A stretch of DNA of 64,000 nucleotides, taken from Lachnospiraceae bacterium. Its GTDB lineage: Bacteria; Bacillota; Clostridia; Lachnospirales; Lachnospiraceae. A model generated the notes under the pieces. That model ran no database searches. It was not told the origin of the DNA and worked only from the letters and a program-made list of their open reading frames with translations. Shown one piece after another: positions 326 to 16,773 of the stretch; within the stretch, counting starts at the first letter, position 1, and each line of letters opens with the position of its first letter. The position numbers were made by a program, and so were the translations under genes. The stretch covers positions 64,657 through 128,656 of the forward strand of contig JAILNS010000031.1 of assembly GCA_024691305.1 (NCBI GenBank). Reading direction: 5' to 3'.

Positions 326-3300
326 GTGAGAAAAAAGAACTTGGCAAGTCAGAAAGTTATCAAAGCGATCACAATCGGTTTATCGGCATTCATGGCACTT
401 TCACAGCCTATGGCTATTTTTGCGGAAGGTGATACCAATCAGGATGTATCTCAGTCTGACAGCCAGCAGAAAGTGGATCAGACTGCTGCTACTCCGAGTA
501 CTGCCACCGTTACTTCCGGTAATGCAGTTACAGCCACTGTAGAAGCAGATGAAGCCGTAAAAGCAGCAATGGGTGGAAATTATGAAGAAACTGCACAAAC
601 GCAACCGGAAGTGTCTATGGTTGAGACTTTAGACGGTGTTGTACCGGTGACTCCGCCAGTGTCACAGGATACAGTAGCTACGCCTGACACAGCTAAGCCT
701 GACCCATCAGCAGTTAAGGATGCAACGGATTCTAAGATTGAGAAAATAGATAAGAAGCTGACCGATGCTGATTTAGCATTGGAGGGCAAGGATGCAACAG
801 AAGGAAATACAGAGATTGAAGGTATCAAAGATCAAGTAGAGGATCTTTATAAACTCAATGCTGATGCTGACAAGGCTGTAAAGAATTATGAAGATAAATT
901 AGATAACGTTGAAGGGACAAATATAACATTAACAGGTTCCCTGGCGTACACTGCAGCGACAGCGGCGACTACAGCTGAAGGAGCAGCTAGTGCAGCAGTC
1001 ACAAATATGAATACAGCAAAAACAGATGCAGATAAGGTCGAAAGTATGGCTTCTGCAACATATGTGGGCCAGGCTGCTGCAATACAGGCACAAAATGAGG
1101 CTGCAAAGATAGCCGGCGATGCAAAGGACAAGGCTGATGCGGCAAAGGCAGAACAAGCCAAGGCTGAGCAGGCTGTGACTGATGCACAAGGTGCTGTTGA
1201 TGAGGCTACACAGAAAGTCGAAGCAGCACAGAAAGCATTTGATGATGCTACAGGTAAAGTCGAAGCAGCACAGAATAAGTTTGATGAACTCATAAAAGCA
1301 TATGGCTTGGAAAATGTTCTTTTGGATGAGAAAGGCAACCTGATTCTTGACGACAACGGAAATCCCAAGGGTATCGGTGACGGGTTGGTTAAAGCAGCAA
1401 TTTCCGCTTCATGGGATGCACTTCAGCTGGCTAAAGGCGATCAGAGTGAGGCAAAGACCGGGCTTGAGACGGCAAAGAGCGAGCAGTCGAAAGCAGCAGA
1501 TGCTGTAACCAAAGCAGAGAAGGCTCTTGAGGATGCAGAGAAACTAGCCCAGGATAATCAGGCAGCTTATGCAAAGGCAGCAAAAGACCTTGAAAGGGCT
1601 AATCTTATAGTCGAAGTTAATGAGTCGGAAAAGAAAAAGAGTGATGCTTATAAAGATTACATCAACTTTTATTATATACCTTATCTTAATGTTGTTGCTT
1701 CTAGCAACCTATCGTCAGCCAATGATGAACTGGCCCAAAAGCTGATCAAGTTCAAGCTGTATGAAGAGGGAATAGACACTAATGATATAAGATTTGGTAA
1801 TGAAGGAAGCAATATAACCGTTACTTACGGACCTGATGATGCACTTGTTACCAGGCGTTTTACCTATGCATCATATTATGGGTGGCTTGATGTCAGTGAG
1901 ATTAAACAGACTAAAGTCGGAAATAAGGAGGTAATAATAAGATCTTACTATACTGATAAATCCGGAACAGAAGTAACAATTCCTGAAAATGCAAAATTAA
2001 AAGAGGATAAAGAATCACAGCCACAAAATGATTACTATTATAAAAGCGAAATAAGCATTAAACAGCCGGTAAGTGAGAGAACGATTCTTGTAGATGCTTA
2101 TTATAATGGACGAAAGCTTAAAAAGGAAAACTATAAATATGTGGAAAAGGATCAGTATGGATATTATATCCCGGACCAGTGGGGATTTGGAAAAAATTAT
2201 CTTTATAATGTCGAAACACGTACTGAATACTATTATACTGATGATAATGGCGAAGAGCATATAGTTAAAGATAATAAATTGGATAGAGTAACTGAATATT
2301 ATTATGTAGATTCATATATAGATAATAGTACCGGACAAACGAAAACTAAAATTTGTGTTGTCAATAAAGATGACACATTAGTAGATCCAATATTTGGCCA
2401 TAGAACCATTATTGTAAATGGACAACCTAAAGACGTTTTAGAGAGACCAGCTTACTATACAAATATTAAACAAGAACGCAAAGTAGTTGTGTATCTGCAT
2501 AATGTTACCGAACAAATACCGATATATACGGATACATACACTTCATTATGCAAGGAATGGGATTACTATAAAGCCAATAAAGACATAACAGCTGACACTG
2601 TAAATAATAAGGAGAAAAAGTTATATGATGATTTAAATGCTATAGTAAATTATAACAAGACAGAACTCCAGAATGCATCAGACAATGCTAAACAAAAAAA
2701 GGCTGAAGCAGACCAGAAAGTTGCAAATGCAACAGCGGCATTAGATGTTCTTACAGCTAAGAATGAAAAAGTGCAGAAAGCATATGATAAAGTCATGGAG
2801 GCAATTAACGCACTTAAGGCAATGCAGAAGATAGCAGGAGTCAGCGAAGAAGCACTTCAGAATATGAAGAATAATCTTGCGGCAGCTGAGACCAGTTTAG
2901 AGAAGGCTCAGGAAGAAGCAGGTAAAGCTGAAGAAGCAGCAACTGCAGCCGTGAAAGAAGCAGATAGGGCAGCAGAAGCAGCCAAGGCTACATTTAAGTT
3001 CGTTACTCCCGCAACTCCTTCAACAGGCGAAGATATACAGACAGAGGTTTCCGGTGATATTAATGCCGGTGGCAGTACATCAACAACTCCTTCCGTAACT
3101 CCTTCAACCGTACCCACACGTGTAGCAGGTTCAGTACCGGAAGGCACTGGTGCACTACTTACTCCTAACGTAGAAGCAGGTGTGGCAGGAGCACGAACAG
3201 GAAGAAATGCAGGTGCAGGAAGAGCCGTTGCAGCAAACGGTAACGGAAATGTACGGATCGGAGATGATCAGGTAGCTCTTGCAGGCGATCTTGAAGAAGC

Positions 3301-3520
3301 TAAGGCTGATGTGGCTGAGGAGGCCGTTGCAGAAAGCACAGATAATAAGCCTGCAACAGCAATTATAGAAGAAGGAGAGATTCCTGCGGCTCAGTCTATA
3401 GAAGAAGGAGCCCTCACCTGGTGGATATGGCTTCTTGTGGTAATGGCAGCTGCAGCCGGCCTGGGTGTCTATAAATATACTGATAATAAGAAAAAGAATC
3501 AGAATCAGCCTACTGAATAA
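326..3520 (+). CDS. Large secreted, membrane-anchored coiled-coil surface protein (1064 aa)
   Basis: GTG start preceded by AGGAGGG. N-terminal signal peptide (…LSAFMALSQPMAIFAEGD). Two long Ala/Lys/Glu-rich coiled-coil blocks flank a Tyr/Asn/Lys-rich central region. A Pro/Thr/Ser linker leads to a C-terminal TM helix (WWIWLLVVMAAAAGLGVY) and a basic tail. No LPXTG motif. Confidence 0.85.
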   Translation: MRKKNLASQKVIKAITIGLSAFMALSQPMAIFAEGDTNQDVSQSDSQQKVDQTAATPSTATVTSGNAVTATVEADEAVKAAMGGNYEETAQTQPEVSMVETLDGVVPVTPPVSQDTVATPDTAKPDPSAVKDATDSKIEKIDKKLTDADLALEGKDATEGNTEIEGIKDQVEDLYKLNADADKAVKNYEDKLDNVEGTNITLTGSLAYTAATAATTAEGAASAAVTNMNTAKTDADKVESMASATYVGQAAAIQAQNEAAKIAGDAKDKADAAKAEQAKAEQAVTDAQGAVDEATQKVEAAQKAFDDATGKVEAAQNKFDELIKAYGLENVLLDEKGNLILDDNGNPKGIGDGLVKAAISASWDALQLAKGDQSEAKTGLETAKSEQSKAADAVTKAEKALEDAEKLAQDNQAAYAKAAKDLERANLIVEVNESEKKKSDAYKDYINFYYIPYLNVVASSNLSSANDELAQKLIKFKLYEEGIDTNDIRFGNEGSNITVTYGPDDALVTRRFTYASYYGWLDVSEIKQTKVGNKEVIIRSYYTDKSGTEVTIPENAKLKEDKESQPQNDYYYKSEISIKQPVSERTILVDAYYNGRKLKKENYKYVEKDQYGYYIPDQWGFGKNYLYNVETRTEYYYTDDNGEEHIVKDNKLDRVTEYYYVDSYIDNSTGQTKTKICVVNKDDTLVDPIFGHRTIIVNGQPKDVLERPAYYTNIKQERKVVVYLHNVTEQIPIYTDTYTSLCKEWDYYKANKDITADTVNNKEKKLYDDLNAIVNYNKTELQNASDNAKQKKAEADQKVANATAALDVLTAKNEKVQKAYDKVMEAINALKAMQKIAGVSEEALQNMKNNLAAAETSLEKAQEEAGKAEEAATAAVKEADRAAEAAKATFKFVTPATPSTGEDIQTEVSGDINAGGSTSTTPSVTPSTVPTRVAGSVPEGTGALLTPNVEAGVAGARTGRNAGAGRAVAANGNGNVRIGDDQVALAGDLEEAKADVAEEAVAESTDNKPATAIIEEGEIPAAQSIEEGALTWWIWLLVVMAAAAGLGVYKYTDNKKKNQNQPTE

Positions 3521-3712: not shown

Positions 3713-3754
3713 AGAAACAGTTTAGTGTAGTTTTTTGATAAACAGGTGATTCAT

Positions 3755-4465
3755 ATGCGTATAGCGATATGTGATGACAGCAAGATAGATGCCAAGAGGA
3801 TCAATTGGGCTCTTATGGATCTGAGTAATGATCTGGAAACGGATTATTATCCTTCCGGACATGATCTTATCGATGCACTTAAAAACGGCGAGAAATTCGA
3901 CGCGGTATTTCTTGATGTGTATATGCCCGGTGAATTCGGTGTTGATGTTGCGGAGCAGTTAAAAGCGATCTCTCCAAGGACAGATATCATCTTTTGCACA
4001 TCAAGTAAGGAACATGCAGTCGATGCGTTCAAGGTTGAGGCTATAGATTATCTGGTTAAACCTTTTGAAGAGATCGATGTGGTCAAGGCTCTGGCACGAG
4101 TTAATCTGGCAGCGGAGATGAGAAGCAACTCCCCTATCATGCTAAAGAGCGGTTCGGAGATCCTTATTTTCCCTCCCGAAAGTGTCCTCAGGATAGAGAG
4201 TGATAAGCATTATACGATCATAACCAAAGCGGATGGCGATTCCGAGAGAGTCCATATGGGTTTCTCGGCTGTATATGATCTTTTCCGGGACAGGTTCATG
4301 CTGATCAAGAGAGGTCTTAGTGTATGCATGGATCATGTTGAGAAGATAGTCGGAGACGTTGTCTATATGAACGATGGCTCATCTTACATCATGAGCAGGG
4401 CAAATAAAGACCAGATCATAAATCAATTCCTGGGATATATGGAGAATAAGAAATACAACAAGTAA
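3755..4465 (+). CDS. LytTR-family response regulator (REC + LytTR DNA-binding domain)
   Basis: Receiver residues are present: CDD, FLDVYMP, CTSS, LVKPF. The C-terminal ~100 aa has a LytTR-like pattern (…VLRIESDKHYTIITKADG…LIKRGLSVCMDHV…). SD AGGTGA (3744-3749) favours ATG 3755 over the GTG at 3746 listed in the ORF track. Confidence 0.85.
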   Translation: MRIAICDDSKIDAKRINWALMDLSNDLETDYYPSGHDLIDALKNGEKFDAVFLDVYMPGEFGVDVAEQLKAISPRTDIIFCTSSKEHAVDAFKVEAIDYLVKPFEEIDVVKALARVNLAAEMRSNSPIMLKSGSEILIFPPESVLRIESDKHYTIITKADGDSERVHMGFSAVYDLFRDRFMLIKRGLSVCMDHVEKIVGDVVYMNDGSSYIMSRANKDQIINQFLGYMENKKYNK

Positions 4466-4481: not shown

Positions 4482-4943
4482 ATGGCCAAATTTGATGACG
4501 AGATAATGGAGTTTGCACCGGCAGGGAATGATGATAGCACTTCCGGTTATCCGGAAGGATATGAAGACGATATTATAAATGCAGTTGCAGGCATAGGACT
4601 CGATACCGAAGCCGGACTTAAATACAGCTACGGGGATAAGGCTTTCTATGTTGAGATAATGGGAGATTATATAAACGAATACGCAGATAAGAGTACCAGA
4701 CTTGAATCCTATTATGAAGGAAATGTATACAGGGAATATCAGGTGCTCGTACATTCCATCAAGAGCACATCAAGAACAATAGGCGCTACGGCACTTTCGG
4801 AAGAAGCCAAAAGACTTGAAGATGCGGCCGCAGAGGAAAATGCTTCTTATATTAAAGAACATCATGAGCCTTTTATGAAAGAGTATGCCAAACTGGCCGG
4901 TGAACTGTCGGCTGTCATGAATAAGGAGAGGATTAGTGGCTGA
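4482..4943 (+). CDS. Stand-alone Hpt (histidine phosphotransfer) protein
   Basis: Hpt signature VLVHSIKSTSRTIGATALSEEAKRLEDAA. SD AAGGGAGAG lies upstream. Confidence 0.8.
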   Translation: MAKFDDEIMEFAPAGNDDSTSGYPEGYEDDIINAVAGIGLDTEAGLKYSYGDKAFYVEIMGDYINEYADKSTRLESYYEGNVYREYQVLVHSIKSTSRTIGATALSEEAKRLEDAAAEENASYIKEHHEPFMKEYAKLAGELSAVMNKERISG

Positions 4944-7317
4944 TTGGGTAATAGTCGTTGATGATGATACCGAAAATCTGAAACTTGCGGGGAGTATATT
5001 AAGTAAGAACGGGATGCGCGTTACTGCACTTAAATCGGGAAACACATTCCTTGAATATATTAAGGAACACGGTGAACCGGATATCGTGCTTCTTGACATA
5101 ATGATGCCCGACATGGACGGGTTTGATACGCTCATCCGTTTGAGAAACTATGAAGAGAGCAGCGGATCGGGGTCTGTTCCGGTCGTATTTCTTACTGCAG
5201 ATGAGAACCGTCAGCATGAAATGCGCGGTTTCCAGATGGGGGTCTCGGACTTTATTCATAAGCCTTTCGATCCGGATATCTTTGCACAGAGAGTTGCCAA
5301 TATAATCGCATCAAGCAAAAAGATGATAAGCATCGAAGAAAAGGCAACTCATGATGACCTTACGGGATTTCTGACCAAGGATCCCGCAAATGAACAGATA
5401 TCTTCCATGTGTCTGAAGGAATTCGGAAGTCTGTGTATGATAGATCTTGATTCTTTTAAGCTTGTAAACGATATGTACGGTCATGAAATGGGAGACCGCG
5501 TTCTGGTCAAGTTTGCGGATGTTTTGCGCGCAAATATGACAGAAGGCAGCATCTGCGGACGAATAGGCGGCGATGAGTTTTTGCTTTTTGCCCTGAACAT
5601 GCAAAGAGAAAGCGATATAGCCTCATTTACAGGAAGGGTAAATGACGGATTTACGGATGCGGCCAAGGAACTGCTCGGAGAAGATCACAGGATACCGCTC
5701 GGTGTTTCTATAGGTGCCGTATCCGTTCCAAAACAGGGAACCGAACTGGATGAGCTTTTTAACATGGCCGACAAGGCTTTGTATACGGTAAAAGATAACG
5801 GAAAGCACGGTTATGCTCTGTATCATGACGAACACTTAAATGCCATGACGGATGCATCCGGAGCCTATATGGATCTTAAGACCCTGTCCAAAATGCTTGA
5901 GGAAAGAAGCATTCCCCAAAGCGTTATGTGGATGGGACGTGAGGCGTTTGGAAATGTATACCGTTATATGATGCGCTACCTGGAAAGATATGATATTTCC
6001 GCATATAAGGTTCTGTTTACTCTGTGTCACAAGGACAAGGATATTACGGATGAGCAAAGGGAAGAAGTGGCGGATTCTTTCAGGGAAGTCATACAGACCA
6101 CCTTACGAAACAGCGATATCATGGTCAGGATAGGCATCGACCAGTTTTTTCTGCTCCTGCCCGAACTTAATCCCGAACATATAGACAGAGTCATAAACAG
6201 GATGTCGGGAGCATGGAAAAAGAGTAACCAGGGCCCTGCGACCGAACTTGAACTTGAGTATGACAGGATAGCCTCAGACTCACGTCATGATATTAAAAGT
6301 TCAGGCAGCGATTCAGATCTTGTGGTAGTCGTGGATGATGATCACAGCAATCTCATGATGGCGGAACGTATCCTCAAAAAAGAAGGCATGAATGTCGAAT
6401 GCATAGGGTCGGGTACCGAACTCCTCGAATATGTTCAGGATCATGATCCCGCACTCATACTTCTTGATGTAAATATGCCCGGAATAGACGGCTTTGAGAC
6501 CATGCAGCGTCTTACATCCAGGGGAGGGCGGATCGCCAGGATACCCGTCATCTTCCTTACCGCAAATGATGATGATGAGACCGAGACACAGGGTTTTGTC
6601 ATGGGGGCCATGGACTTTATACGTAAGCCTTTTGTTCCGGAGATACTTATAATGCGTGTAAAACATGCGATCAGTCTGATAAGGCTCCAGAACCATCTAA
6701 AGAGTGAAGTCAGTGAGAAGACAGAAGAGAACGAAAGCCTGTCGCTTCATATAATCCAGGCACTTGCATCTGCGGTCGATGCCAAGGACATGTATACGAG
6801 CGGTCATTCCGGAAGAGTGGCTGAATATGCGCGCATGATCTCAGCAAGATACGGATATGATGAGGAAGCTCAGGATAAGATATATATGATAGGCCTGCTC
6901 CATGATGTGGGCAAGATCGGTATATCGGATGCGATCATCAACAAGGTCGGAGCTCTTGATGATAAGGAATATGAGATCATCAAGACTCACCCTGTACAGG
7001 GGGCCAAGATACTTGGCAAGATCAAGGAGATGCCCGAACTTGTGATAGGCGCTAAATGGCACCATGAAAGATATGACGGCAAAGGTTATCCCGACGGACT
7101 TACCGGTGAAGATATACCTGAAGAAGCCAGGATAATAGCAGTAGCCGATTCATACGATGCAATGACCAGCAGAAGGAGTTATCGTGATGCACTTCCTCAG
7201 GAGAAGGTCAGATCCGAGATAGTCAACGGAAAAGGTACTCAGTTCGATCCTAAATTCGCTGAAATAATGCTTGAACTGATCGATGAAGATACTCAGTACA
7301 GTATGCGGGAAGAATGA
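4936..7317 (+). CDS. REC - GGDEF - degenerate GGDEF-like - REC - HD-GYP protein (dual-receiver c-di-GMP synthase/phosphodiesterase)
   Basis: GTG start after AAGGAGAGG, overlapping the Hpt gene by 8 nt. REC1 (VVDDD…LLDIMMPDMDG…FLTAD…HKPF). Intact GGDEF at 5566-5580. A second GGDEF-like block carries GIDQF at 6133-6147. REC2 (VVDDD…LLDVNMPGIDG…FLTAN…RKPF). HD-GYP motifs HDVGK (6901-6915) and HHERYDGKGYP (7060-7092). Confidence 0.9.
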   Translation: MADWVIVVDDDTENLKLAGSILSKNGMRVTALKSGNTFLEYIKEHGEPDIVLLDIMMPDMDGFDTLIRLRNYEESSGSGSVPVVFLTADENRQHEMRGFQMGVSDFIHKPFDPDIFAQRVANIIASSKKMISIEEKATHDDLTGFLTKDPANEQISSMCLKEFGSLCMIDLDSFKLVNDMYGHEMGDRVLVKFADVLRANMTEGSICGRIGGDEFLLFALNMQRESDIASFTGRVNDGFTDAAKELLGEDHRIPLGVSIGAVSVPKQGTELDELFNMADKALYTVKDNGKHGYALYHDEHLNAMTDASGAYMDLKTLSKMLEERSIPQSVMWMGREAFGNVYRYMMRYLERYDISAYKVLFTLCHKDKDITDEQREEVADSFREVIQTTLRNSDIMVRIGIDQFFLLLPELNPEHIDRVINRMSGAWKKSNQGPATELELEYDRIASDSRHDIKSSGSDSDLVVVVDDDHSNLMMAERILKKEGMNVECIGSGTELLEYVQDHDPALILLDVNMPGIDGFETMQRLTSRGGRIARIPVIFLTANDDDETETQGFVMGAMDFIRKPFVPEILIMRVKHAISLIRLQNHLKSEVSEKTEENESLSLHIIQALASAVDAKDMYTSGHSGRVAEYARMISARYGYDEEAQDKIYMIGLLHDVGKIGISDAIINKVGALDDKEYEIIKTHPVQGAKILGKIKEMPELVIGAKWHHERYDGKGYPDGLTGEDIPEEARIIAVADSYDAMTSRRSYRDALPQEKVRSEIVNGKGTQFDPKFAEIMLELIDEDTQYSMREE

Positions 7318-7318
7318 T

Positions 7319-9850
7319 ATGAATAATAATTCCGAAGAGAACGAACTGTATAAATCTTCTCATATAATGATCCTCTTAAGCTATACCATGTTTTCCGTGA
7401 TACTGACCGCAGAGTCTCTTATCATGGGTTGGGAAAAATGGGCGATCCTGCTTATTGGCGCAGGTATTACGGGTGCATGGATCATACATATACAGAGCCG
7501 CTTAAGCAATAAGGGAAGGCTCTGGGTCTATTCCGTGCTTATGATGGTCACGTATTTCTTCTACGGGATACATCTTACGAGTACCTTTGATATAGCCATA
7601 GTCATGAGCATAGTCATTATGCTCTACACCATGTCCGGCGAAAAGGCGTTCATAGCGCTGTGCCAGGTGACTTTCTTCATAACATTTGCTTATGATATCA
7701 TCGCCATGATCATAGCGGGTGAGAAGTTTGACAGCCTGATCGTGACCAGGGCAATGCTTCATGTAGCCATGATCCTTATGGCGGGCTGGATCGCACGTAC
7801 GATCATAGATAAATGGAATGAGATGATCCGCCGCACAGGCTCAGAGATAAATCAGCTTAAGGTCCAGACTGACAGGTTGAATAACTTCCTTGCAAATGTC
7901 TCGCATGAGATCAGAACGCCTGTCAATGCCGTAATGGGCCTTTCTTCCATTCTGGAAAAAGCAGATCTGCCTGAAGATATACTTGATGACGTATCCGCAA
8001 TTTCCAAAGCGGGGCACCGTGTTGCCGAGCAGATGGGGGATATCCTTGATTACACCGAGATCGATATGGGCAAACTATCTGTCAGCAACGAACGCTACAT
8101 GATCGGTTCGCTCGTAAATGACTGCCTGACACAGTTGTCTTTTGCCGATGATCACGGAGTGGATCTGGTAGTTGACATGGAGGCGCAGACTCCGTCGGAA
8201 CTTATCGGAGACGCCGACAAGATCAAGAAGATACTCTGGCATCTGATCGTAAACGGATATAAATTCACCTCGGAAGGGGGCGTATATGCCCATGTATTTC
8301 CCGTTAAAAGAGAATACGGTATAAACCTGATCATTGAGGTGAAGGATACAGGAATAGGTATCGGTGAAGAGGAACTTGAGCATATATATGAAAGGTTCTA
8401 CCAGTCGGATTCCGGACAGACCAGAGCGGTCGGAGGCCTGGGACTCGGGCTGTCTATCGTTAACGGGTTCGTGAGCAGCATGGGCGGAGTCATGACTATA
8501 GAAAGCACTCCAAACGTCGGTACCACGGTCAGAGTAAGCATTCCCCAGCAAATATCGGATGAAGATCCATGTCTGTCTGTAGGAGATAAGGATAATTGTA
8601 AGGTTGCAGGATTCCTTGGTTTCATGACGACCGGTCATACGGAAGTCAGGGAATACTATATGAAGATGATCGCTCATCTCGTATCCGGGCTTTCTGTTCC
8701 GTTTAGCAGGGTGCAATCCATTGAAGACTTAAGATCGCTGGTCGAACGATCTGAGATAACCCATCTGTTTGTAGGGACCGGAGAGTATCTGGAAAACCGC
8801 AGTTATATAGAATCACTTACAGATAAGATGAATGTAGCGGTTGTTGCCGACAGGGGATTTGATGGAAAAACAGGACCGAGGATCACCCTTCTTGCCAAAC
8901 CTTTTTACGGGGCTCAGGTGGCTAACTTCTTAAATCATGCGTTTGAGATGGGTATATTCCTTGCGGAAGAGAAGATGAGGTGCCCGGGGTTAAAAGCCCT
9001 CGTTGTGGACGACGAGCCGATGAATCTGCTCGTTGCAAGAGGGATATTTGAAAGTTACGGAATGGAAGTCGAAACTGCCGCAAGCGGAGAAGAGTCCGTC
9101 GTAAAATGCAAGGAAAATACATACGATGTGGTCTTCATGGATCACATGATGCCCGGTATGGACGGAGTTGAAGCCATGAAGAGGATCAGAAATGAGATGG
9201 CTCATTCGGGAAAAGATATTTCCGTGATCGCTCTTACCGCAAATGCTATAAGCTCCGCCAAGGAAATGTTCATGGCCGAAGGATTTGACGGTTTTGTACC
9301 CAAGCCCATAGAACTGCCCGAACTTGAGCGGGTTCTTAAGCATGTACTTCCAAAATCTGCGATAGTATACGAGAAGATGATAGGTGAAGAACATGAATCC
9401 GGGGCCGAAACAGGAGAGACGGACGAGGCCCTTAAACCGGACGAGGCACTTAAACCGGATGAGGCACTTATACTGGACGAGGCTTTGGCACTCAAATACT
9501 GCATGGGTGACAGAGATCTGTATAATGCGCTCATTGCAGAATACGTTAATGACAGGGAGACCAAGGTCAAAACACTGAATGAACTGTACGAGGCACGTGA
9601 ACTTAAAGATTATGCGATAAAAGTTCATGCGATAAAGAGTACCTCCAAGACCATAGGCGCCATGAAGGTTTTTGAGGAAGCAAAGGACTTAGAAGCAGCT
9701 GCCAAGTCAGGTGATGAAGCATATGTTGATTCAAATCATCCCGGATTTATTAAGGATTACGAGAATCTTATGATAAGTCTTAGTCCCGGTGAAGATGGCG
9801 GGGACGAAGTCTTAGAGTTTGAACCCGAAGGAAGTTCTGATGACGAGTAA
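7319..9850 (+). CDS. Hybrid sensor histidine kinase (5-6 TM sensor, HisKA, HATPase_c, receiver-like spacer, REC, Hpt)
   Basis: H-box FLANVSHEIRTPVNAV. G-boxes DTGIGI and GGLGLGLSIV. REC (VVDDEPMN…FMDHMMPGMDG…ALTAN…VPKP). Hpt (HAIKSTSKTIGAMKVFEEAKDLEAAA). ATG 7319 lies 1 nt after the upstream stop; the ORF track's ATG at 7283 is the alternative start. Confidence 0.9.
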   Translation: MNNNSEENELYKSSHIMILLSYTMFSVILTAESLIMGWEKWAILLIGAGITGAWIIHIQSRLSNKGRLWVYSVLMMVTYFFYGIHLTSTFDIAIVMSIVIMLYTMSGEKAFIALCQVTFFITFAYDIIAMIIAGEKFDSLIVTRAMLHVAMILMAGWIARTIIDKWNEMIRRTGSEINQLKVQTDRLNNFLANVSHEIRTPVNAVMGLSSILEKADLPEDILDDVSAISKAGHRVAEQMGDILDYTEIDMGKLSVSNERYMIGSLVNDCLTQLSFADDHGVDLVVDMEAQTPSELIGDADKIKKILWHLIVNGYKFTSEGGVYAHVFPVKREYGINLIIEVKDTGIGIGEEELEHIYERFYQSDSGQTRAVGGLGLGLSIVNGFVSSMGGVMTIESTPNVGTTVRVSIPQQISDEDPCLSVGDKDNCKVAGFLGFMTTGHTEVREYYMKMIAHLVSGLSVPFSRVQSIEDLRSLVERSEITHLFVGTGEYLENRSYIESLTDKMNVAVVADRGFDGKTGPRITLLAKPFYGAQVANFLNHAFEMGIFLAEEKMRCPGLKALVVDDEPMNLLVARGIFESYGMEVETAASGEESVVKCKENTYDVVFMDHMMPGMDGVEAMKRIRNEMAHSGKDISVIALTANAISSAKEMFMAEGFDGFVPKPIELPELERVLKHVLPKSAIVYEKMIGEEHESGAETGETDEALKPDEALKPDEALILDEALALKYCMGDRDLYNALIAEYVNDRETKVKTLNELYEARELKDYAIKVHAIKSTSKTIGAMKVFEEAKDLEAAAKSGDEAYVDSNHPGFIKDYENLMISLSPGEDGGDEVLEFEPEGSSDDE
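9422..9487 (+). repeat. In-frame 18-bp tandem repeat (DEALKP x ~3.5) in the REC-Hpt linker of the kinase
   Basis: GACGAGGC(C/A)CTTAAACCG is repeated head to tail at 9422, 9440 and 9458, with a partial copy at 9476. Confidence 0.9.
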
Positions 9851-12500
9851 GGAAACCGGATATAAAAATAATACAGAGATGCTCCATTTTCTGATAATGT
9901 CGTTTCTTACCCTTCCCGCGATGTTTTTATATTATTTTGCGTCTTTTATATGGGATGTGAGACAGCGGGAAAAAGGCAATGAAATGCTTATTATGATAGG
10001 GATAATGATCATCTGTCTTGTTCTTGTCATAGTTGCCTTAAAAAGAGGTAATCCCGGGATCATTCCTGTTTTGATAGCGCTGATAGAGATCGTAGTGATA
10101 ATCCCGGAGAATGCACTCAGGGGGAACTTTAACCTCGGAGTAACGATGTGGTATGCAGCCGGAGTATTATATATAGTCACGCTCATAAAAGGCAGGATCA
10201 AATATGTTCTTTTTGCGATAGAGGCTGTGACTGCTGTGGTTGTTCATTATATGTTCTATACGAATGCATCCGGAGGAACAGCGCTTGCAGTAACAGAGTA
10301 TATCGCCGCATACATAGCAGCACTCATGGTCTGTGTGATGATAATAGTCATGGTCGAATATGAGATATATCTGCAAAAGACCGCAGTCCGTGATGCCGAA
10401 GAAAGACGGCGTGAGATAGAAGAATTAAACATGGCGCAGAATCGCTTTTTCTCAAGTATGAGCCATGAGATCAGAACACCCATAAATACGATAATCGGAT
10501 TCAATGAGATGATCTTAAGGGATGCTGTGTCGGAAGAAGTCGCAAACGATGCCGAGAATATCAAGTCGGCTTCCAAGATACTCTTATCTGTCATAAATGA
10601 TATCCTTGATATGTCCAAGATTGAGTCGGGACAGATGGAGATCGTTAATGAAGCATACGATGTAGGAGAGATGCTCTCTGAGATAGTTAATATGATGTGG
10701 GGAAGGGCTCATGAGAAGGGGATAGAGTTTAAGCTTGATATAGATCCCACACTTCCCGGGATGCTCTTCGGTGATGAGGTCCGTATTAAGCAGATACTCA
10801 TAAATCTGCTTAATAACGCCGTAAAATACACACGTGAAGGAAGCATAACACTGTCGATACACTGTGAAAAAAAGGCCGGGGACAAGGTTAAGGTCATATA
10901 TTCGGTCGAGGATACGGGCATGGGTATCCGCAGGGAGAATATCCCATATCTCTTCAATGCCTTCAGGCGTGTTGAAGATGAAAAGACCAGATATATAGAA
11001 GGAACAGGACTGGGACTTTCGATCGTTAAACAGCTCACGGACCTTATGGGCGGAGAGGTATCGGTAAACAGTATATATACCAAAGGATCTACTTTTACAG
11101 TGAGTCTGGAACAGGAAGCTGCGGGAGAAGAACTACTGGGTGAGTTTGATCCCAAACGGATCGGAAACGTTCATACGGAACACAGACACCACAGCAGGTT
11201 TGAAGCTCCGAATGCACGTGTGCTCATAGTGGATGATAACCGTGCGAATCTTATGGTCGCAGTTAAACTGCTTAAGGAAACACAGGTTCAGACCGTAACT
11301 GCCCAAAGCGGTGCGGAATGTCTGGAGCTTACCCTGGAGTCTCATTATGATGCTATTCTTATGGATCATCTGATGCCTGAAATGGATGGTATAGAATGCC
11401 TTAAATCCATACGTGAGCAGGCGGGTGGTATGTGCCGGGAAACACCGGTAGTGGTGCTTACGGCAAACGCGGCCACGGAAGACCAGAAGATGTACAAAAG
11501 TGCCGGGTTTGACGGGTACCTGACCAAGCCCGTAGAACCTGACAGGCTTGAAGAAATGCTCGCTGCTGTTCTACCTAAGGATCTTATCCATAACGAAGGT
11601 ACGGATAATGATGAATCCGAAAATGTCGATCAGATCAGAAGAGCCGGACGTAAGAGAGCTCTCATCATAACCACGGATTCGGTATGTGACCTTCCGCCCA
11701 GGCTCTTGCAGAGCTTTAAGGTGCCTGTGCTTTCATATAAGGTATATACGGATACAGGTATCTTTACGGACGGATATGAGGCCGAGGGCGATGTTATGGT
11801 CAGATATATGGCTGATACGGGAAGAACCGCCAGAAGCCGTGCTCCCGAAGTATCCGACTATGAGAATTTCTTTGCGGAACAGCTGTCTTATTCGCAGCGT
11901 ATCATACATATAACGATGGCACGCGGGTCAAGTAACGGCTATGCAAACGCATGTGAGGCCGCAAGGTCTTTTGCCAATGTCAAGGTATTTGATTCCGGAC
12001 ATCTTTCAAGCGGTATGGGACTTATGGTACTTACTGCAGCCGGGATGGTTGATTCGGGGCAAACAGATCCCGATGTGATATTAGATGCACTTCTTAAGAA
12101 AAAAGAACGTATATCGACTAGCTTCATGGTTGAAAGTACCGATTATCTCTACCGGGGTGGCAGGATGCCCGAGCGGATAAACAGGCTGTGCACGTCTCTT
12201 ATGATCCACCCTGTGATATCTCTTAAGGACAGCCGCATGCGAATATCCGCGGCCGTGATCGGAGGAAAAGAAAGAACCAGAAGACAGTATATGAAAAGAA
12301 CTTTCCGTGATGCGGGCAATATAGACAGGAGTATACTGTTTATCACTTATGCCGGCATGAAAAAGGCCGAGCTTGAGGAGATCAAAAAAGAAGTATCCAG
12401 GATGATCATTTTTGATAAGGTATGTATCCAGAAAGCCTCTCCTGCGATATCAATAAACTGCGGACCGGGAAGTTTCGGACTGATATTTGCAAGAAAATAG
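9840..12500 (+). CDS. Hybrid sensor histidine kinase with C-terminal DegV (FakB-like fatty-acid-binding) domain: TM sensor - HisKA - HATPase_c - REC - DegV
   Basis: H-box FFSSMSHEIRTPINTI. G-boxes DTGMGI and GTGLGLSIV. REC (IVDDNRAN…LMDHLMPEMDG…VLTAN…LTKP). From ~11658 the DegV motifs appear: TTDSVCDL, FDSGHLSSGMG, YLYRGGRM, NCGPGSFGL. No Hpt domain. ATG 9840 overlaps the upstream gene by 11 nt; the ORF track's 9819 start is non-ATG. Confidence 0.85.
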   Translation: MTSKETGYKNNTEMLHFLIMSFLTLPAMFLYYFASFIWDVRQREKGNEMLIMIGIMIICLVLVIVALKRGNPGIIPVLIALIEIVVIIPENALRGNFNLGVTMWYAAGVLYIVTLIKGRIKYVLFAIEAVTAVVVHYMFYTNASGGTALAVTEYIAAYIAALMVCVMIIVMVEYEIYLQKTAVRDAEERRREIEELNMAQNRFFSSMSHEIRTPINTIIGFNEMILRDAVSEEVANDAENIKSASKILLSVINDILDMSKIESGQMEIVNEAYDVGEMLSEIVNMMWGRAHEKGIEFKLDIDPTLPGMLFGDEVRIKQILINLLNNAVKYTREGSITLSIHCEKKAGDKVKVIYSVEDTGMGIRRENIPYLFNAFRRVEDEKTRYIEGTGLGLSIVKQLTDLMGGEVSVNSIYTKGSTFTVSLEQEAAGEELLGEFDPKRIGNVHTEHRHHSRFEAPNARVLIVDDNRANLMVAVKLLKETQVQTVTAQSGAECLELTLESHYDAILMDHLMPEMDGIECLKSIREQAGGMCRETPVVVLTANAATEDQKMYKSAGFDGYLTKPVEPDRLEEMLAAVLPKDLIHNEGTDNDESENVDQIRRAGRKRALIITTDSVCDLPPRLLQSFKVPVLSYKVYTDTGIFTDGYEAEGDVMVRYMADTGRTARSRAPEVSDYENFFAEQLSYSQRIIHITMARGSSNGYANACEAARSFANVKVFDSGHLSSGMGLMVLTAAGMVDSGQTDPDVILDALLKKKERISTSFMVESTDYLYRGGRMPERINRLCTSLMIHPVISLKDSRMRISAAVIGGKERTRRQYMKRTFRDAGNIDRSILFITYAGMKKAELEEIKKEVSRMIIFDKVCIQKASPAISINCGPGSFGLIFARK

Positions 12501-12619: not shown

Positions 12620-14338
12620 ATGATCAAAGAAAACAAGATCTTTTTGGGAATGGCAGACGGTGAGGAAGTCGATTTTGAACTGAAGATGAGTAACCGTCAC
12701 GGACTTATAGCAGGTGCCACAGGTACCGGTAAGACAGTCAGTCTTAAGGTTCTGGCTGAAAGTTTTAGCGATGCGGGCGTACCTGTATTTATGGCAGATG
12801 TCAAAGGCGATATCGCCGGCATGTGTGCTGCAGGCGAGTCAAAGGACTTCATAAAGACCAAGGTCGAGCAGTACGATCTTATGAGCCAGGGATTTGAATT
12901 TAAGGGTTATCCCGTAAACTTCTGGGATGTATACGGCAAAGGCGGCATGCCGCTTAGAACTACCGTATCCGAGATGGGTCCGCTTCTCATGTCCAGGATC
13001 CTCGGACTTACCGAGACTCAGGAAGATGTTCTTACCGTAGTATTTAAGATAGCAGATGACAACAAACTGCTCCTTATCGATACCAAGGATCTCAAGGCAA
13101 TGCTTGCATATGTAGAAGAGAATTCCGCAGAACTTGCGCTTGACTACGGTAATATGTCCAAGCAGAGTCTTGCAGTTATAGTACGAAGTATCGTTGCACT
13201 TGAGAGCCAGGGCGGAGACCAGTTCTTCGGAGAGCCTGCGCTTGATATAAATGACTGGCTTAAGACGGATCTTGACGGTAAGGGAATGATCCAGATCCTT
13301 GATGCAAGAGAACTGGTTAATTCTCCCGATATGTATTCGACATTCTTACTCTGGATGATATCCGAACTATACGAAGCACTTCCCGAAGTAGGTGACCTTG
13401 AGAAACCCAGGATGGTATTCTTCTTTGATGAGGCACATCTTCTTTTTGATACCGCTTCCAAGTCACTGCTTGAGAAGATAGAGCAGATAGTTAAGCTTAT
13501 AAGATCCAAGGGTGTCGGCATCTTCTTTGTAACCCAGTCTCCCAGAGATATTCCCGATTCCGTACTGGCACAGCTTGGTAACAAGGTCCAGCATGCACTT
13601 CATGCGTACACACCCGCAGAGATCAAGGCTGTTAAGCAGGCGGCTGAATCATTCCGTGCAAATGATGCTTTTGATACCTATGATACACTGATCAATCTCG
13701 GTATCGGTGAAGCACTTGTATCAACGCTTGAGGCAGACGGTGTTCCTACCGTGGTTAAGAGGACCTCGATCCTTCCTCCTCAGTCACATCACGGTGCCAT
13801 AGAAGATTCTACCAGAAAACAGATTATAGAAGGCAGCGCACTCTATAAGAGATACAATGACTTCTTTGACAGAGATTCCGCATATGAATTCCTGACCAGG
13901 AAGAATATGGAAGCAGAAGCTGAAGCCGAGAGATTAAGAGCTGAGGCAGATAAGAAGAAACAGGAAGAGATAGAAGCCAAGGAAGCAGAGAAGGAAGCTG
14001 CCGAGAAGGCTAAACAGGCCGAGAAGGAAGAAGCCGCAGCAGCGAAGCAGGCAGAAAAGGAAGCGGCCGCAGCAGCAAAGCAGGCAGAGAAAGAAGCCAA
14101 AGAAGCCGAGAAGGCAGCTCTTGCAGCTGAGAAAGCAGCCGAAAAAGAAGCAGCAGCCAAGAAGAAAAAGGTTAAGAATGTCATATCCTCTACTGCAGGC
14201 AGTGCCGGCAGTACGGTAGGACGTGAACTTGGTAATGCACTCGGAAGCGCAGTAGGCGGTAAGTTCGGTAAGAAGATCGGCGGTAACGTGGGATCTACAC
14301 TTTTCCGCGGCATATTAAAGACTCTGTTCTCACTTTGA
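12620..14338 (+). CDS. DUF853 / HerA-like P-loop NTPase (YjgR-like) with an Ala/Glu/Lys-rich C-terminal extension
   Basis: N-terminus …NRHGLIAGATGTGKTVSLKVLAESFSDAGVPVFMADVKGDIAG matches the YjgR-type Walker A region. Walker B is at VFFFDEAH. The C-terminal low-complexity coil ends in a Gly-rich amphipathic tail. Confidence 0.8.
   Translation: MIKENKIFLGMADGEEVDFELKMSNRHGLIAGATGTGKTVSLKVLAESFSDAGVPVFMADVKGDIAGMCAAGESKDFIKTKVEQYDLMSQGFEFKGYPVNFWDVYGKGGMPLRTTVSEMGPLLMSRILGLTETQEDVLTVVFKIADDNKLLLIDTKDLKAMLAYVEENSAELALDYGNMSKQSLAVIVRSIVALESQGGDQFFGEPALDINDWLKTDLDGKGMIQILDARELVNSPDMYSTFLLWMISELYEALPEVGDLEKPRMVFFFDEAHLLFDTASKSLLEKIEQIVKLIRSKGVGIFFVTQSPRDIPDSVLAQLGNKVQHALHAYTPAEIKAVKQAAESFRANDAFDTYDTLINLGIGEALVSTLEADGVPTVVKRTSILPPQSHHGAIEDSTRKQIIEGSALYKRYNDFFDRDSAYEFLTRKNMEAEAEAERLRAEADKKKQEEIEAKEAEKEAAEKAKQAEKEEAAAAKQAEKEAAAAAKQAEKEAKEAEKAALAAEKAAEKEAAAKKKKVKNVISSTAGSAGSTVGRELGNALGSAVGGKFGKKIGGNVGSTLFRGILKTLFSL
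14033..14098 (+). repeat. In-frame 33-bp tandem duplication (AAAAKQAEKEA x2) inside the DUF853 gene tail
   Basis: Units at 14033-14065 and 14066-14098 differ at only a few positions. Confidence 0.8.
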
Positions 14339-14366: not shown

Positions 14367-15953
14367 ATGGATATTATGGATAACGGGAACGGGCGTACAA
14401 ACATAAACAGAATATCCGATGCAGTCGGTTTGATATGTTTCATTATCGGAGCAGGTGTCCTTTTTAGGACTGCCTGCTTCGTTTTGTCAGAAGATATCTG
14501 GTTTGACGAACTGTTTACCGCACAGCTTGCATCCAAACCATTCGGGCAGATGATAGAACTGGATTCTGCAGATGTGCATCCTCCGCTTTATTATTTGATA
14601 GTCAGGCTGGTTTACATAATCTTGCATCCGCTGACCGGTATGAGCAGTGTTGTTGCTTCCAAGATCGCATCCATCATTCCGTATGTATTTACTTTTGCTT
14701 ATCTGCTCACATATGTACGCAAACGCTTCGGGCTGCTTGCGGGCGGTATTGCCTTTTTACTTATGGAGACAATGCCCCATATGAGTGAATATATGGTCGA
14801 AGCAAGGATGTACTCATGGAGCGCATTTGTTCTTCTTGCTATGTTCATACATGCGATGGAGTTTTTGGATGAGGGCAGATACCGTCATATGATATTTATG
14901 CTTATTTACGGTATAGCGGGTATGTATCTTCATTATTATGCTTTGATAGGAGCCGGTATCATAGCTGTCGGAACGACCGTGATAAGTTTTGTCAGGGGAG
15001 CCGGACGTAAGGTGAGGATATCCTTGTGCGTATGTATGGCAATTGCACTGATTGCTTATATTCCGTGGATAGGAGCCATGTCAGGGCAGGTCGGACAGGT
15101 TTCCGCAAGCTATTGGATCCAGCCGGTTTCCGTAAGGACGATCGCGGGAAGTGCCAAATATATTTTTATGCCGCAGTTTGAAAACAGCATTCTAAGTTAT
15201 GCATGTGCGGTAGTGATGATCCTTGCATATGTATTTACGGTTGGAAGATTCATATTTATCCATGCCCGTAAGAAACAGTTCTTTGAATGTACTTATGTGG
15301 CGGGTTCTGTGATGATCCTGATACTTCTTGTTTTGGCAGGGATCGTGGCATCGGTTATTATAAGGCCTGTTTTCGTATACAGATACATGTTTCCGGCCAT
15401 GTTTATTTTTTGGCTGGGAGCTGCAGTGTCGCTTGCTTATAATGTGACATCCGACATATCAAGATACGGTGTCAGGGGTGTTTTGTGGATAGCAGTTATT
15501 GCGGTTTACATAATTTCGTGCGTGCGCTGCTTTAATCTGTTCAGGTGGGAAGAAGCACGTAAAAATCAGGGAATGAAAGATTTTGGCACTGTGATCGAAG
15601 AGGTCCAAAATGAATATCCGGATACGATGGTAGTATGCAATTTTAATCAGGTTCAGGCGATCATGTGGAACTATCTGGATAATGACAGTATCCTCTGGGG
15701 ATATACCGACGAGACCCTGATCGGGGATATATGTGACAGATCGCCCATGGTAATGACGGAAGATATTGATGAACTAAAAAGCACGGTAGAAGCCGGCGGA
15801 CAGGACAGTTTTCTTTTCTTTGGAAGCGGTAATGCCAGAGAGGAAATTTTGGACTATTGGGAATCTAACGGAATGTTTACAAAAATGTTACAAGATAGTT
15901 GCTTTTTAGAGCGGTATTATATTAATATATATGAAGTTAGGTTCGAAAGGTAA
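14367..15953 (+). CDS. Polytopic membrane glycosyltransferase, GT39/GT83 (ArnT/PMT-like) type
   Basis: ~12 predicted TM helices. N-terminal loop motif DIWFDELFT…DVHPPLYY is typical of GT-C lipid-linked-sugar transferases. A soluble C-terminal domain follows. Confidence 0.6.
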   Translation: MDIMDNGNGRTNINRISDAVGLICFIIGAGVLFRTACFVLSEDIWFDELFTAQLASKPFGQMIELDSADVHPPLYYLIVRLVYIILHPLTGMSSVVASKIASIIPYVFTFAYLLTYVRKRFGLLAGGIAFLLMETMPHMSEYMVEARMYSWSAFVLLAMFIHAMEFLDEGRYRHMIFMLIYGIAGMYLHYYALIGAGIIAVGTTVISFVRGAGRKVRISLCVCMAIALIAYIPWIGAMSGQVGQVSASYWIQPVSVRTIAGSAKYIFMPQFENSILSYACAVVMILAYVFTVGRFIFIHARKKQFFECTYVAGSVMILILLVLAGIVASVIIRPVFVYRYMFPAMFIFWLGAAVSLAYNVTSDISRYGVRGVLWIAVIAVYIISCVRCFNLFRWEEARKNQGMKDFGTVIEEVQNEYPDTMVVCNFNQVQAIMWNYLDNDSILWGYTDETLIGDICDRSPMVMTEDIDELKSTVEAGGQDSFLFFGSGNAREEILDYWESNGMFTKMLQDSCFLERYYINIYEVRFER

Positions 15954-15957
15954 TCCC

Positions 15958-16773
15958 ATGCGAAAGATCAAAAGAAAGACAAAAAAAGTGATAATAGGCG
16001 CTGCGATAGGAACTATGATCACAGCAGCTTTGTTACTCAGTGCCTTTGCCTTTTCCGATGTTGATGTATCTGCATCCGAAAGAGTAGTGGAAGAAATGGC
16101 AGGAGACGGCACTTATATGACAGCCCAGGCTGCAGAACTTGATACAGTCATATCCGAAGAGGGCGTGACCGAGAATCCGTTAGGCGACTTGGAAGAAGCC
16201 ACAGAAGAAGATGTTGTACGTAATGTGGAAAATCTTGGCGCCGATAAGGATTATCTGTCAGAGATGGATAAGGAAGAGATCAAGGATCTGTCTGCGGAGG
16301 CACTTAATAACGAAGGGCTTGATACTTCGGTAGCCGACGGTGCAGTTGTTACAAGAGGTATCACATATAATCTTCCCGAAGGTTTCATAGAAGATCCGGA
16401 TTATCCCGGAATGTATGTGACCGAGAGATATCCGATCGATGCCAGCAATATGGTTTATACCGAACTTGATGCGGATTATACCCTTCAGCTTATGGATGAA
16501 GCGTATTTTGAAGAGACTGTCGAGAATATCTTTGCAAGCAGATACGGTCAGGCCATAGATGTTACGATCACAGAATATACTTCTTATGAAATAGACAATA
16601 TACCCGCACTCAGGGTTAAGGTTGAATATGATCTTGCGGATAATCATGTGACAAGTCTTATGATCATCGTAAACGGTACAAAGACTTATACCGTAATATA
16701 TACACAGAACCATGACTACGACCGCATGGAACTTTTTGAGGCAAGTGCGGCAAGCATTCATGTGCAAAGATAG
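15958..16773 (+). CDS. Membrane-anchored extracytoplasmic protein of unknown function
   Basis: N-terminal basic stretch plus a TM helix (VIIGAAIGTMITAALLLSAFAF), an acidic linker, and a ~140-aa beta-rich C-terminal domain. ATG 15958 lies 4 nt after the upstream stop; the ORF track's 15931 start overlaps that gene. Confidence 0.6.
   Translation: MRKIKRKTKKVIIGAAIGTMITAALLLSAFAFSDVDVSASERVVEEMAGDGTYMTAQAAELDTVISEEGVTENPLGDLEEATEEDVVRNVENLGADKDYLSEMDKEEIKDLSAEALNNEGLDTSVADGAVVTRGITYNLPEGFIEDPDYPGMYVTERYPIDASNMVYTELDADYTLQLMDEAYFEETVENIFASRYGQAIDVTITEYTSYEIDNIPALRVKVEYDLADNHVTSLMIIVNGTKTYTVIYTQNHDYDRMELFEASAASIHVQR

Follow-up and report, generated by a model that had tools for sequence, protein, structure and literature searches.

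A DegV/FakB-like module at the C-terminus of a paired hybrid histidine kinase from a Lachnospiraceae bacterium: a candidate tethered lipid sensor

The 64,000-nucleotide stretch of DNA analyzed here, called the window, lies on contig JAILNS010000031.1 of assembly GCA_024691305.1 (positions 64,657 to 128,656 of the forward strand), from a gut/rumen Lachnospiraceae bacterium. It carries a gene, here named HK-B, for a hybrid histidine kinase that ends in a module of the DegV/FakB type. The fusion is real and conserved, and HK-B is one half of an obligate kinase pair, the other half being the kinase HK-A encoded directly upstream. To our knowledge, every FakB/DegV protein described so far is a free-standing carrier, which takes fatty acids of the host or of the membrane and delivers them to FakA. 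The reading favored here, which is put forward tentatively, is that the DegV module senses a lipid, in all likelihood a free fatty acid, from a tethered position in the cytoplasm, and that it would modulate a two-kinase phosphorelay controlling cyclic di-GMP (c-di-GMP).

HK-B is contained in a single unbroken open reading frame (ORF) of the window, 9819..12500 on the + strand, whose product has 886 residues from ATG 9840 and 893 from an alternative TTG at 9819. The ATG is the likely start; residue numbers are nevertheless counted from the TTG, and subtraction of 7 gives the numbering of the GenBank protein. ATG 9840 overlaps the end of the upstream kinase gene (TAA 9848-9850), and this overlap of start and stop suggests translational coupling; overlaps of 4 nt, or otherwise short, are also found between the genes of the kinase pair in loci L001, L002 and L004. 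The 886-residue product is exactly MCR5595446.1, from a metagenome-assembled genome (MAG) of a Lachnospiraceae bacterium (236-kb contig), and is named in GenBank 'DegV family EDD domain-containing protein'. Pfam and AlphaFold give the order six-helix sensor, HisKA, HATPase_c, REC, DegV, with the following features:

9840..12500, + strand: HK-B gene, hybrid histidine kinase with C-terminal DegV-like module (ORF, domains, GenBank match)
9827..9834, + strand: Shine-Dalgarno sequence GAAGGAAG, 5 nt before ATG 9840 (read from the sequence)
9861..10364, + strand: six-helix membrane-embedded sensor without extracytoplasmic domain (AlphaFold model)
10434..10631, + strand: HisKA/DHp, residues 206-271 (Pfam, E = 4e-18)
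10770..11114, + strand: HATPase_c, residues 318-432 (Pfam, E = 4e-27)
11220..11561, + strand: receiver domain REC (Response_reg), residues 468-581 (Pfam, E = 1e-25)
11562..11666, + strand: linker between REC and DegV, 32% pairwise identity and 27-30 residues long across 121 homologues
11667..12494, + strand: DegV/FakB-like two-domain fold of the Asn type (Pfam, TIGR00762, AlphaFold, Foldseek)

Homologues were sought among 5.8 billion proteins clustered at 90% identity. At least 120 clusters, of 868-907 residues and 48-57% identical to HK-B, all possess HisKA, HATPase_c, Response_reg and DegV; together with HK-B they form the family alignment of 121 sequences used below. Close homologues are named from Lachnospiraceae, Ruminococcus and Roseburia, and, among the matches listed, the family is also found in Oscillospiraceae. 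The suspicion, raised in a preliminary description of this DNA, that an assembly error or a frameshift had made one gene out of two is thus excluded by the continuous frame, by the exact GenBank protein and by the many clusters of like length and domains; the invariance of the catalytic residues likewise indicates that the fusion is no assembly artefact. The same clusters rule out a rare or unique architecture. The preliminary description also knew of no characterized phosphorelay kinase that ends in such a module, and here it is supported: in a literature search, neither a fusion of DegV to a kinase nor a link between DegV and c-di-GMP turned up. The architecture thus belongs to a large family on which no paper was found.

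The kinase core and the receiver are intact, as had been proposed. The phospho-accepting His216 (H209 in the 886-residue numbering; nt 10464-10466) lies in the motif SHEIRTP and is kept in 121/121 sequences. The HATPase_c boxes are complete (N box NNAVKY, G1 DTGMG, G2 GTGLGL), and N333, DTGMG and GTGLGL are invariant in the family; the receiver set D472/D473, D516 (the phospho-acceptor, nt 11364-11366), T548 and K570 is likewise found in every member. HK-B is thus predicted to be a catalytically competent hybrid histidine kinase and its gene a working one, apparently under selection. Mean pairwise identity in the family is 84% for DHp, 76% for the catalytic domain and 68% for REC. Pfam detects no Hpt domain (histidine phosphotransfer) in HK-B itself; Hpt domains are offered in trans by HK-A and by a stand-alone protein (ORF 4482..4943). 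The linker that follows REC is variable in sequence and nearly fixed in length.

In the AlphaFold model, the first 202 residues of HK-B form six long helices (predicted local distance difference test, pLDDT, 87.3; predicted template-modelling score, pTM, 0.83). Only 4-7 residues connect one helix to the next, and the last helix continues into DHp. Such short loops indicate a sensor wholly embedded in the membrane, with both ends in the cytoplasm, and bear out the purely membrane-embedded sensor of five to six helices described earlier. A Foldseek comparison of the sensor with the PDB revealed no structural relative (best E 0.9, template-modelling score, TM-score, <= 0.32) and Pfam no significant family; DUF6057 and MASE11, which match weakly in some homologues, stay below threshold and were rejected as its identity. 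It is the most variable part of the protein together with the linker, with a mean pairwise identity of 32% and only a P and a W invariant in the family. The sensors of HK-A and HK-B have no detectable relationship, and a common sensor is ruled out (E = 1.8).

The C-terminal region matches Pfam DegV (PF02645) at residues 617-892, over positions 4-279 of the 280 in the profile, with E = 2.8e-41 and 142 bits, where 27 would suffice; it also scores 151 bits with NCBIfam TIGR00762 (DegV), whose cut-off is 99.7. These matches dispose of the doubt that the region might fail to score as DegV. Its AlphaFold model is of high quality (pLDDT 91.1, pTM 0.89), and the best 45 Foldseek matches are all DegV/FakB chains, with TM-scores of 0.78-0.89 (e.g. 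2DT8, 4X9X, 7W7H chain E, 5UTO); the model superposes over its full length on fatty-acid-loaded FakB/DegV structures (0.82-0.89), and the next matches, FakA_C and DhaK-like proteins, lie far lower, at about 0.5. Sequence identity to any solved structure is 15-24%. As modelled, the module is a complete two-domain EDD-type fold, of the kind that encloses an acyl chain, and the proposal of a hybrid kinase ending in a DegV/FakB fold of about 280 residues stands. All six motifs claimed for it are present in the order given: TTDSVCDL (618-625), SRAPEVSDY (673-681), HITMARGSSNGY (697-708), FDSGHLSSGMG (724-734), YLYRGGRM (776-783) and NCGPGSFGL (880-888). The set is, however, not fully canonical, since NCGPG has an Asn in the place of the His of the carboxylate network.

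In FakB, the carboxylate of the fatty acid is bound by the hydrogen-bond network Thr62-Ser95-His270 in FakB1, equivalent to T61, S93 and H266 in FakB2 (PMC8892158, PMC10848957). Arg173/170 is essential for catalysis (PMC8892158, PMC10848957) and has been proposed to contact the acyl-phosphate (PMC8892158). Arg205/202, described as 'completely conserved', belongs to the patch that encounters the membrane, and FakA binding depends on it (PMC8892158, PMC10848957): the R202A mutation abolishes this binding (PMC10848957). These residues were mapped on HK-B by aligning it in pairs with 4X9X, 2DT8 and 3PL5 in HMMER, by the family alignment and by hmmalign with the PDB references, with the following equivalents:

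Thr61/62: S673, Ser in 120/121; the hydroxyl is kept (Thr to Ser)
Ser93/95: S705, Ser in 115/121
Arg170/173: R782, Arg in 107/121
His266/270: N880 (nt 12456-12458), Asn in 119/121
Arg202/205: loop I814-G815-G816, without Arg; hydrophobic at position 814, and Gly at 815 in 121/121

The hydroxyl pair is therefore present as S673 and S705, and R782 takes the place of the arginine that serves Fak catalysis and latches over the fatty acid. Position 880 is Asn, while the three reference structures have His; Broussard and colleagues are said to have found, in 2016, an approximately 1000-fold loss of activity in the FakB mutant H266A. A search of PDB sequences with the C-terminal 99 residues for a solved structure of the Asn type returned only 2DT8, which has His. 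The docking arginine is missing from the 814-816 loop, which sits between strand q200-208 and helix q211-222 of the model, and the basic residue nearest to it is at 817 (R or K in 72/121). A carboxylate-type head-group site, made of Ser673, Ser705 and Arg782 with Asn in place of His, is plausibly retained; conversely, the features for docking to FakA and to the membrane are, as judged from these alignments, lost. Since two of the five signature residues differ, the module represents a subfamily that has diverged from FakB and does not count as one by function, and it is probably no carrier of substrate for FakA.

The conservation of the module, with a mean pairwise identity of 53-54%, lies between those of REC and of the sensor, and it holds 28 invariant positions, G815 included. 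With the module as query, an exhaustive phmmer search of 1.84 billion sequences, each representing a cluster at 50% identity, gave 5823 matches with E <= 1e-3, of which 220 reach E <= 1e-30. Among the 149 best representatives of this wider clade, 123 have Asn at the position of His266/270, 65 (44%) have Arg at that of Arg170/173, and at that of Ser93/95 about 55% have Ser and 26% Gly. Such relaxation of the signature residues raises the possibility, rather unlikely in our judgment, that fatty-acid binding has been lost and that the module serves as a platform for interaction or dimerization (docking, for instance, HK-A, Hpt or the HD-GYP protein described below) or binds a small molecule other than a fatty acid. 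The obligate pairing with HK-A, the movement of the Hpt domain between the two proteins and a linker whose fixed length suggests that geometry matters are in keeping with a scaffold. In the close family, however, S673, S705, R782 and N880 are 88-99% conserved, the two sub-domains around the acyl tunnel are equally conserved (53-54% each), and the full-length superposition on lipid-loaded structures points the same way, to a lipid site.

The wider clade consists largely of fusions. Of the 149 best representatives, 98 exceed 330 residues, with DegV at the C-terminus in 68, at the N-terminus in 14 and internal in 16, and ten diverse members typed with Pfam all carry kinase, receiver or Hpt domains (10/10). 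Two types have DegV at the C-terminus (HisKA-HATPase-REC-DegV and dCache-HisKA-HATPase-REC-DegV), one has DegV followed by Hpt (HisKA-HATPase-REC-DegV-Hpt, about 1150 residues) and two begin with it (DegV-...-HisKA-HATPase-REC-Hpt and DegV-dCache-HisKA-HATPase-REC-Hpt, 1568 residues). In P0127, P0160, P0213, P0241 and P0265 the N-terminal DegV is followed by a six-helix sensor of the HK-B type, recognized by a hidden Markov model of the sensor (E = 1e-14 to 1e-22); with six helices in between, the DegV of this permuted form also lies in the cytoplasm, and the order DegV, six helices, kinase, REC, Hpt places it in the input position. These data suggest that members of the Asn-type DegV clade are mostly phosphorelay fusions, recruited repeatedly in several domain orders. 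Short REC-DegV and REC-DegV-Hpt proteins (P0130, P0138, P0127) were not accepted as distinct architectures: they start or end inside a domain and are probably contig-end fragments, as several of the shorter clade entries are likely to be. Stand-alone Asn-type DegV proteins of about 285 residues exist as well (P0123, P0128, P0152, P0154 and others), with up to 49% identity to the module.

The side-by-side position of REC and DegV in HK-B allows a further, chemical reading, namely that a phosphoryl group is exchanged between the aspartyl-phosphate of REC and a fatty acyl-phosphate bound by DegV, which would make the protein either a signal-gated fatty-acid kinase independent of FakA or a sensor of the acyl-phosphate pool. 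Receivers can autophosphorylate from small acyl phosphates, e.g. acetyl phosphate; REC and DegV are joined by a tether of fixed length; and Arg782, whose FakB counterpart is the proposed contact to the acyl-phosphate, is kept in 88% of the family. If this were true, sensing of a pool that feeds phospholipid synthesis would couple membrane biogenesis to c-di-GMP. Such chemistry is nonetheless highly improbable: it has no known precedent, the arginine is poorly conserved in the wider clade, and in the permuted forms DegV is far from REC in the chain, with the membrane sensor and then the entire kinase core between them.

The genes upstream of HK-B are on the same strand, with ORFs that overlap or nearly abut, and were missing from the preliminary description, which mentioned neither the Hpt-bearing obligate partner kinase, nor the stand-alone Hpt protein, nor the c-di-GMP enzymes:

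3746..4465, + strand: REC-LytTR response regulator (Pfam)
4482..4943, + strand: stand-alone Hpt protein, His91 in HSIKSTSRTIGA (Pfam Hpt, E = 1.5e-7)
4936..7317, + strand: REC-GGDEF-REC-HD-GYP protein (Pfam; GGDEF and HHERYDGKGYP motifs intact)
7283..9850, + strand: partner hybrid kinase HK-A (Pfam and motifs)

HK-A comprises a multi-helix membrane sensor, HisKA, HATPase_c, about 135 unassigned residues, REC and Hpt, the latter at residues 750-812 with H782 in HAIKSTSKTIGA; the stand-alone Hpt protein is paralogous to this C-terminal Hpt (67 bits). The unassigned residues (window 8570-8990) have no Pfam match; their pattern resembles beta-alpha-beta, and they are possibly a pseudo-receiver. 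A tandem peptide repeat, EALKPD, EALKPD, EALILD, EALAL, stands just before the Hpt domain (9425-9495).

Ten loci were compared (the window, L001, L002, L004-L008, L036 and L038) by calling their ORFs and searching them with the proteins of the window. An HK-A orthologue lies directly upstream of the DegV kinase in 10/10, with scores of 420-1090 bits against about 130 for generic kinase similarity. A scan of a genome collection with patterns taken from the family alignment, which were generic HisKA and REC motifs, had given mostly unrelated hybrid kinases: among the 80 loci listed, only L005-L008, L036 and L038 have a DegV part. In L008 (138-5721, from a rumen Lachnospiraceae MAG) the upstream kinase, of 689 residues, is devoid of Hpt, and the DegV kinase, of 1165 residues, has a C-terminal one; the Hpt domain has thus moved between the partners, as expected if both kinases act as one unit. 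In the window, L001 and L004 the pair is preceded by a REC-GGDEF-REC-HD-GYP gene, in L038 by one that is REC-HD-GYP-like, and in L005 and L036 by a single REC gene; L002/L003, from Ruminococcus sp. YE71, and L004 have EAL genes downstream of the pair. The REC-GGDEF-REC-HD-GYP protein is likely the terminal phospho-acceptor and the c-di-GMP output of the cluster. The REC-LytTR gene was seen in the window only, not being kept in the other loci, and its product is a possible transcriptional output. A scan for promoters and terminators that might mark the limits of the operon was uninformative, with fewer matches than in shuffled sequence.

No fakA, plsX, stand-alone DegV or lipid-metabolism gene was found in the 64-kb window, and no fakA or plsX near any of the ten loci. 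This bears on the proposal, made in the preliminary description, that receiver phosphorylation controls the hand-off of a fatty acid. The module would then be a working FakB presenting its ligand to FakA for conversion to acyl-phosphate, and the kinase would regulate the uptake of exogenous fatty acids into phospholipid. The complete DegV fold, the preserved Thr/Ser and Ser hydroxyls and catalytic arginine, and the location C-terminal to REC, the usual place of an output domain, would all suit it. Yet hand-off to FakA is disfavored by the change of His to Asn and the missing docking arginine, both family-wide, and the neighbors are c-di-GMP enzymes. Nor does an output role fit the rest of the clade: DegV does occupy the slot after REC in HK-B, as had been pointed out, but relatives carry it between REC and Hpt or N-terminal to the sensor-kinase. 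On this evidence, receiver-gated delivery is quite improbable. The other idea proposed earlier, that a bound fatty acid feeds back on the kinase, fares better, since the REC-DegV-Hpt and the permuted architectures favor feedback of a ligand on signaling over lipid delivery controlled by REC; that the ligand is a fatty acid is suggested by the fold and the head-group residues.

The tethered lipid sensor that we favor would work as follows. HK-B and the translationally coupled HK-A would each autophosphorylate on the HisKA histidine, as their intact motifs suggest. The phosphoryl group would then pass to the REC aspartate of the same kinase, from there to the Hpt domain of HK-A or to the stand-alone Hpt protein, and finally to the receivers of the REC-GGDEF-REC-HD-GYP protein, and here possibly of the LytTR regulator too, so that the level of c-di-GMP and gene expression would be set. 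The DegV module would be held at the inner face of the membrane by its tether of 27-30 residues and would exchange fatty acid with the bilayer in a FakB-like manner; in FakB, helix alpha-8' opens to load and unload the fatty acid at the bilayer (PMC8892158). The liganded and the apo module would differ in their effect on the phosphorylation of REC, on its dephosphorylation or on transfer from REC to Hpt. Tethering to a membrane kinase would also explain why the arginine for docking to the membrane and to FakA is dispensable. The ligand, the direction of regulation and the route of phosphotransfer are what we infer in this scheme; the fold, the catalytic residues, the kinase pair, the c-di-GMP genes beside it and the domain architectures are read from the data above.

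Several points weigh against this scheme. Every function assigned to HK-B is a deduction. Arg782, which Fak catalysis requires, would be needless for pure sensing, yet 88% of the close family have it, and the change of His to Asn might alter or abolish the binding of a carboxylate. The alignment of the Arg202/205 loop moves by one or two residues from one reference to another, and K817, just after the loop, may leave some residual docking to FakA. Furthermore, the association with c-di-GMP is not uniform: only a single REC protein stands beside the pair in L005 and L036, and there are no c-di-GMP genes within the contig in L006 and L007.

The HK-B family probably lets the cell sense lipids, an ability that, as far as we know, is largely obscure in Gram-positive anaerobes where free fatty acids are concerned. 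Lachnospiraceae and Oscillospiraceae are abundant in rumen and gut, and among their major cues, toxic as well as dietary, are unsaturated fatty acids of long chain length; if the module binds fatty acids, it would offer a testable route from lipid status through c-di-GMP to motility, adhesion or biofilm behavior. The gain of a ligand-binding domain by a histidine kinase is a familiar theme in evolution. The fusion of the HK-B type was itself already visible in databases, hidden by annotation; new here are the Asn-type phosphorelay DegV clade, the obligate partnership of two kinases and the association with c-di-GMP enzymes. Sensor kinases by the hundred bear no other name than 'DegV family EDD domain-containing protein', a blind spot of annotation that makes them invisible to searches by name. 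For the Fak field, the module may be useful as a natural separation-of-function variant of FakB, with the binding residues kept and those for FakA docking apparently lost.

Outside the signaling cluster, the window is ordinary chromosome, with rimP-nusA-infB-truB-ribF and addAB. All its large ORFs are on the + strand and the GC skew is positive throughout 1-64000, a strong leading-strand co-orientation that is typical of Bacillota chromosomes. Directly upstream of the cluster, at 326-3520, is encoded a 1064-residue protein rich in Ala, Glu and Lys, with a signal peptide, a C-terminal membrane anchor and no Pfam match, probably a cell-surface protein. Downstream of a gene for a HerA-like ATPase (12620..14338), two consecutive ORFs at 14367-16773 belong to no Pfam family and encode a 528-residue protein with several transmembrane segments and a 280-residue protein. 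A third hybrid kinase and a REC-containing protein downstream of it lie at 27134-31134; the kinase, of 1080 residues, has HisKA, HATPase, REC and a weak Hpt after an unassigned multi-helix membrane N-terminus of about 470 residues, and its core is the closest paralogue of the HK-B core (344 bits). L005 (18018-21307) and L036 (11819-15147) have a similar kinase and single-REC pair, which directly follows the DegV pair.

Among known proteins, the closest to the module are the FakB/DegV proteins (FakB1 and FakB2 of S. aureus, FakB2 of S. suis and T. thermophilus DegV, 2DT8), which it resembles in fold, in profile scores, in the hydroxyl pair and in the equivalent of Arg170/173. These are, however, stand-alone proteins of about 280 residues, whereas the module is fused to a kinase, and they have His266/270 and Arg202/205 where it has Asn and no docking Arg.

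At the level of the whole system, the nearest parallel is RpfC-RpfG of Xanthomonas, where a fatty-acid signal, the diffusible signal factor (DSF), acts on a hybrid kinase with Hpt and, through a REC-HD-GYP protein, leads to c-di-GMP hydrolysis (PMC5391125, PMC4504480). The corresponding parts, a hybrid kinase with Hpt and a REC-HD-GYP protein, are present in the window as HK-A and the product of ORF 4936..7317; the systems thus share multi-helix membrane hybrid kinases with REC and Hpt (HK-A, together with HK-B), a REC-HD-GYP acceptor alongside and a candidate fatty-acid ligand. Conversely, no homology of the sensors was detected, and HK-B would read a fatty acid through a cytoplasmic DegV domain, RpfC through its N-terminal periplasmic/membrane region; there are two kinases instead of one, and the hosts are Gram-positive Clostridia. 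No synthase of the RpfF type (crotonase/ECH family) was found among the ORFs of the window that were scanned. With neither a homologous sensor nor such a synthase, the likeness is one of functional analogy only, not of membership. That the cluster of two kinases, DegV and HD-GYP is a Gram-positive counterpart of cell-cell signaling by DSF-type fatty acids is accordingly unlikely, though more likely than the direct acyl-phosphate chemistry considered above.

A link between fatty acids and a histidine kinase is also found in S. aureus, where the accumulation of fatty acids in fakA mutants, or the addition of oleate, lowers the output of the SaeS kinase (PMC12327003 and references therein). There too, the FakA/FakB system is connected to a histidine kinase of the membrane whose sensor lies in the membrane alone; that link, however, is indirect and in trans, through the transmembrane helices of SaeS, whereas HK-B carries a FakB-like domain covalently. 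Finally, DhaQ/DhaS of Lactococcus lactis (PDB 2IU4, 2IU6) belong to the same Dak/Fak (EDD-fold) superfamily and are distant fold matches of the module (TM-score about 0.5-0.57). DhaQ is a DhaK paralogue turned into a ligand-sensing co-activator, with dihydroxyacetone as ligand and a TetR-type regulator as output. Sub-family, ligand and output are different from those considered here, and there is no fusion to a kinase; DhaQ/DhaS nevertheless provide a precedent for the recruitment of a substrate-binding subunit as a sensor, the role tentatively assigned to the DegV module of HK-B.

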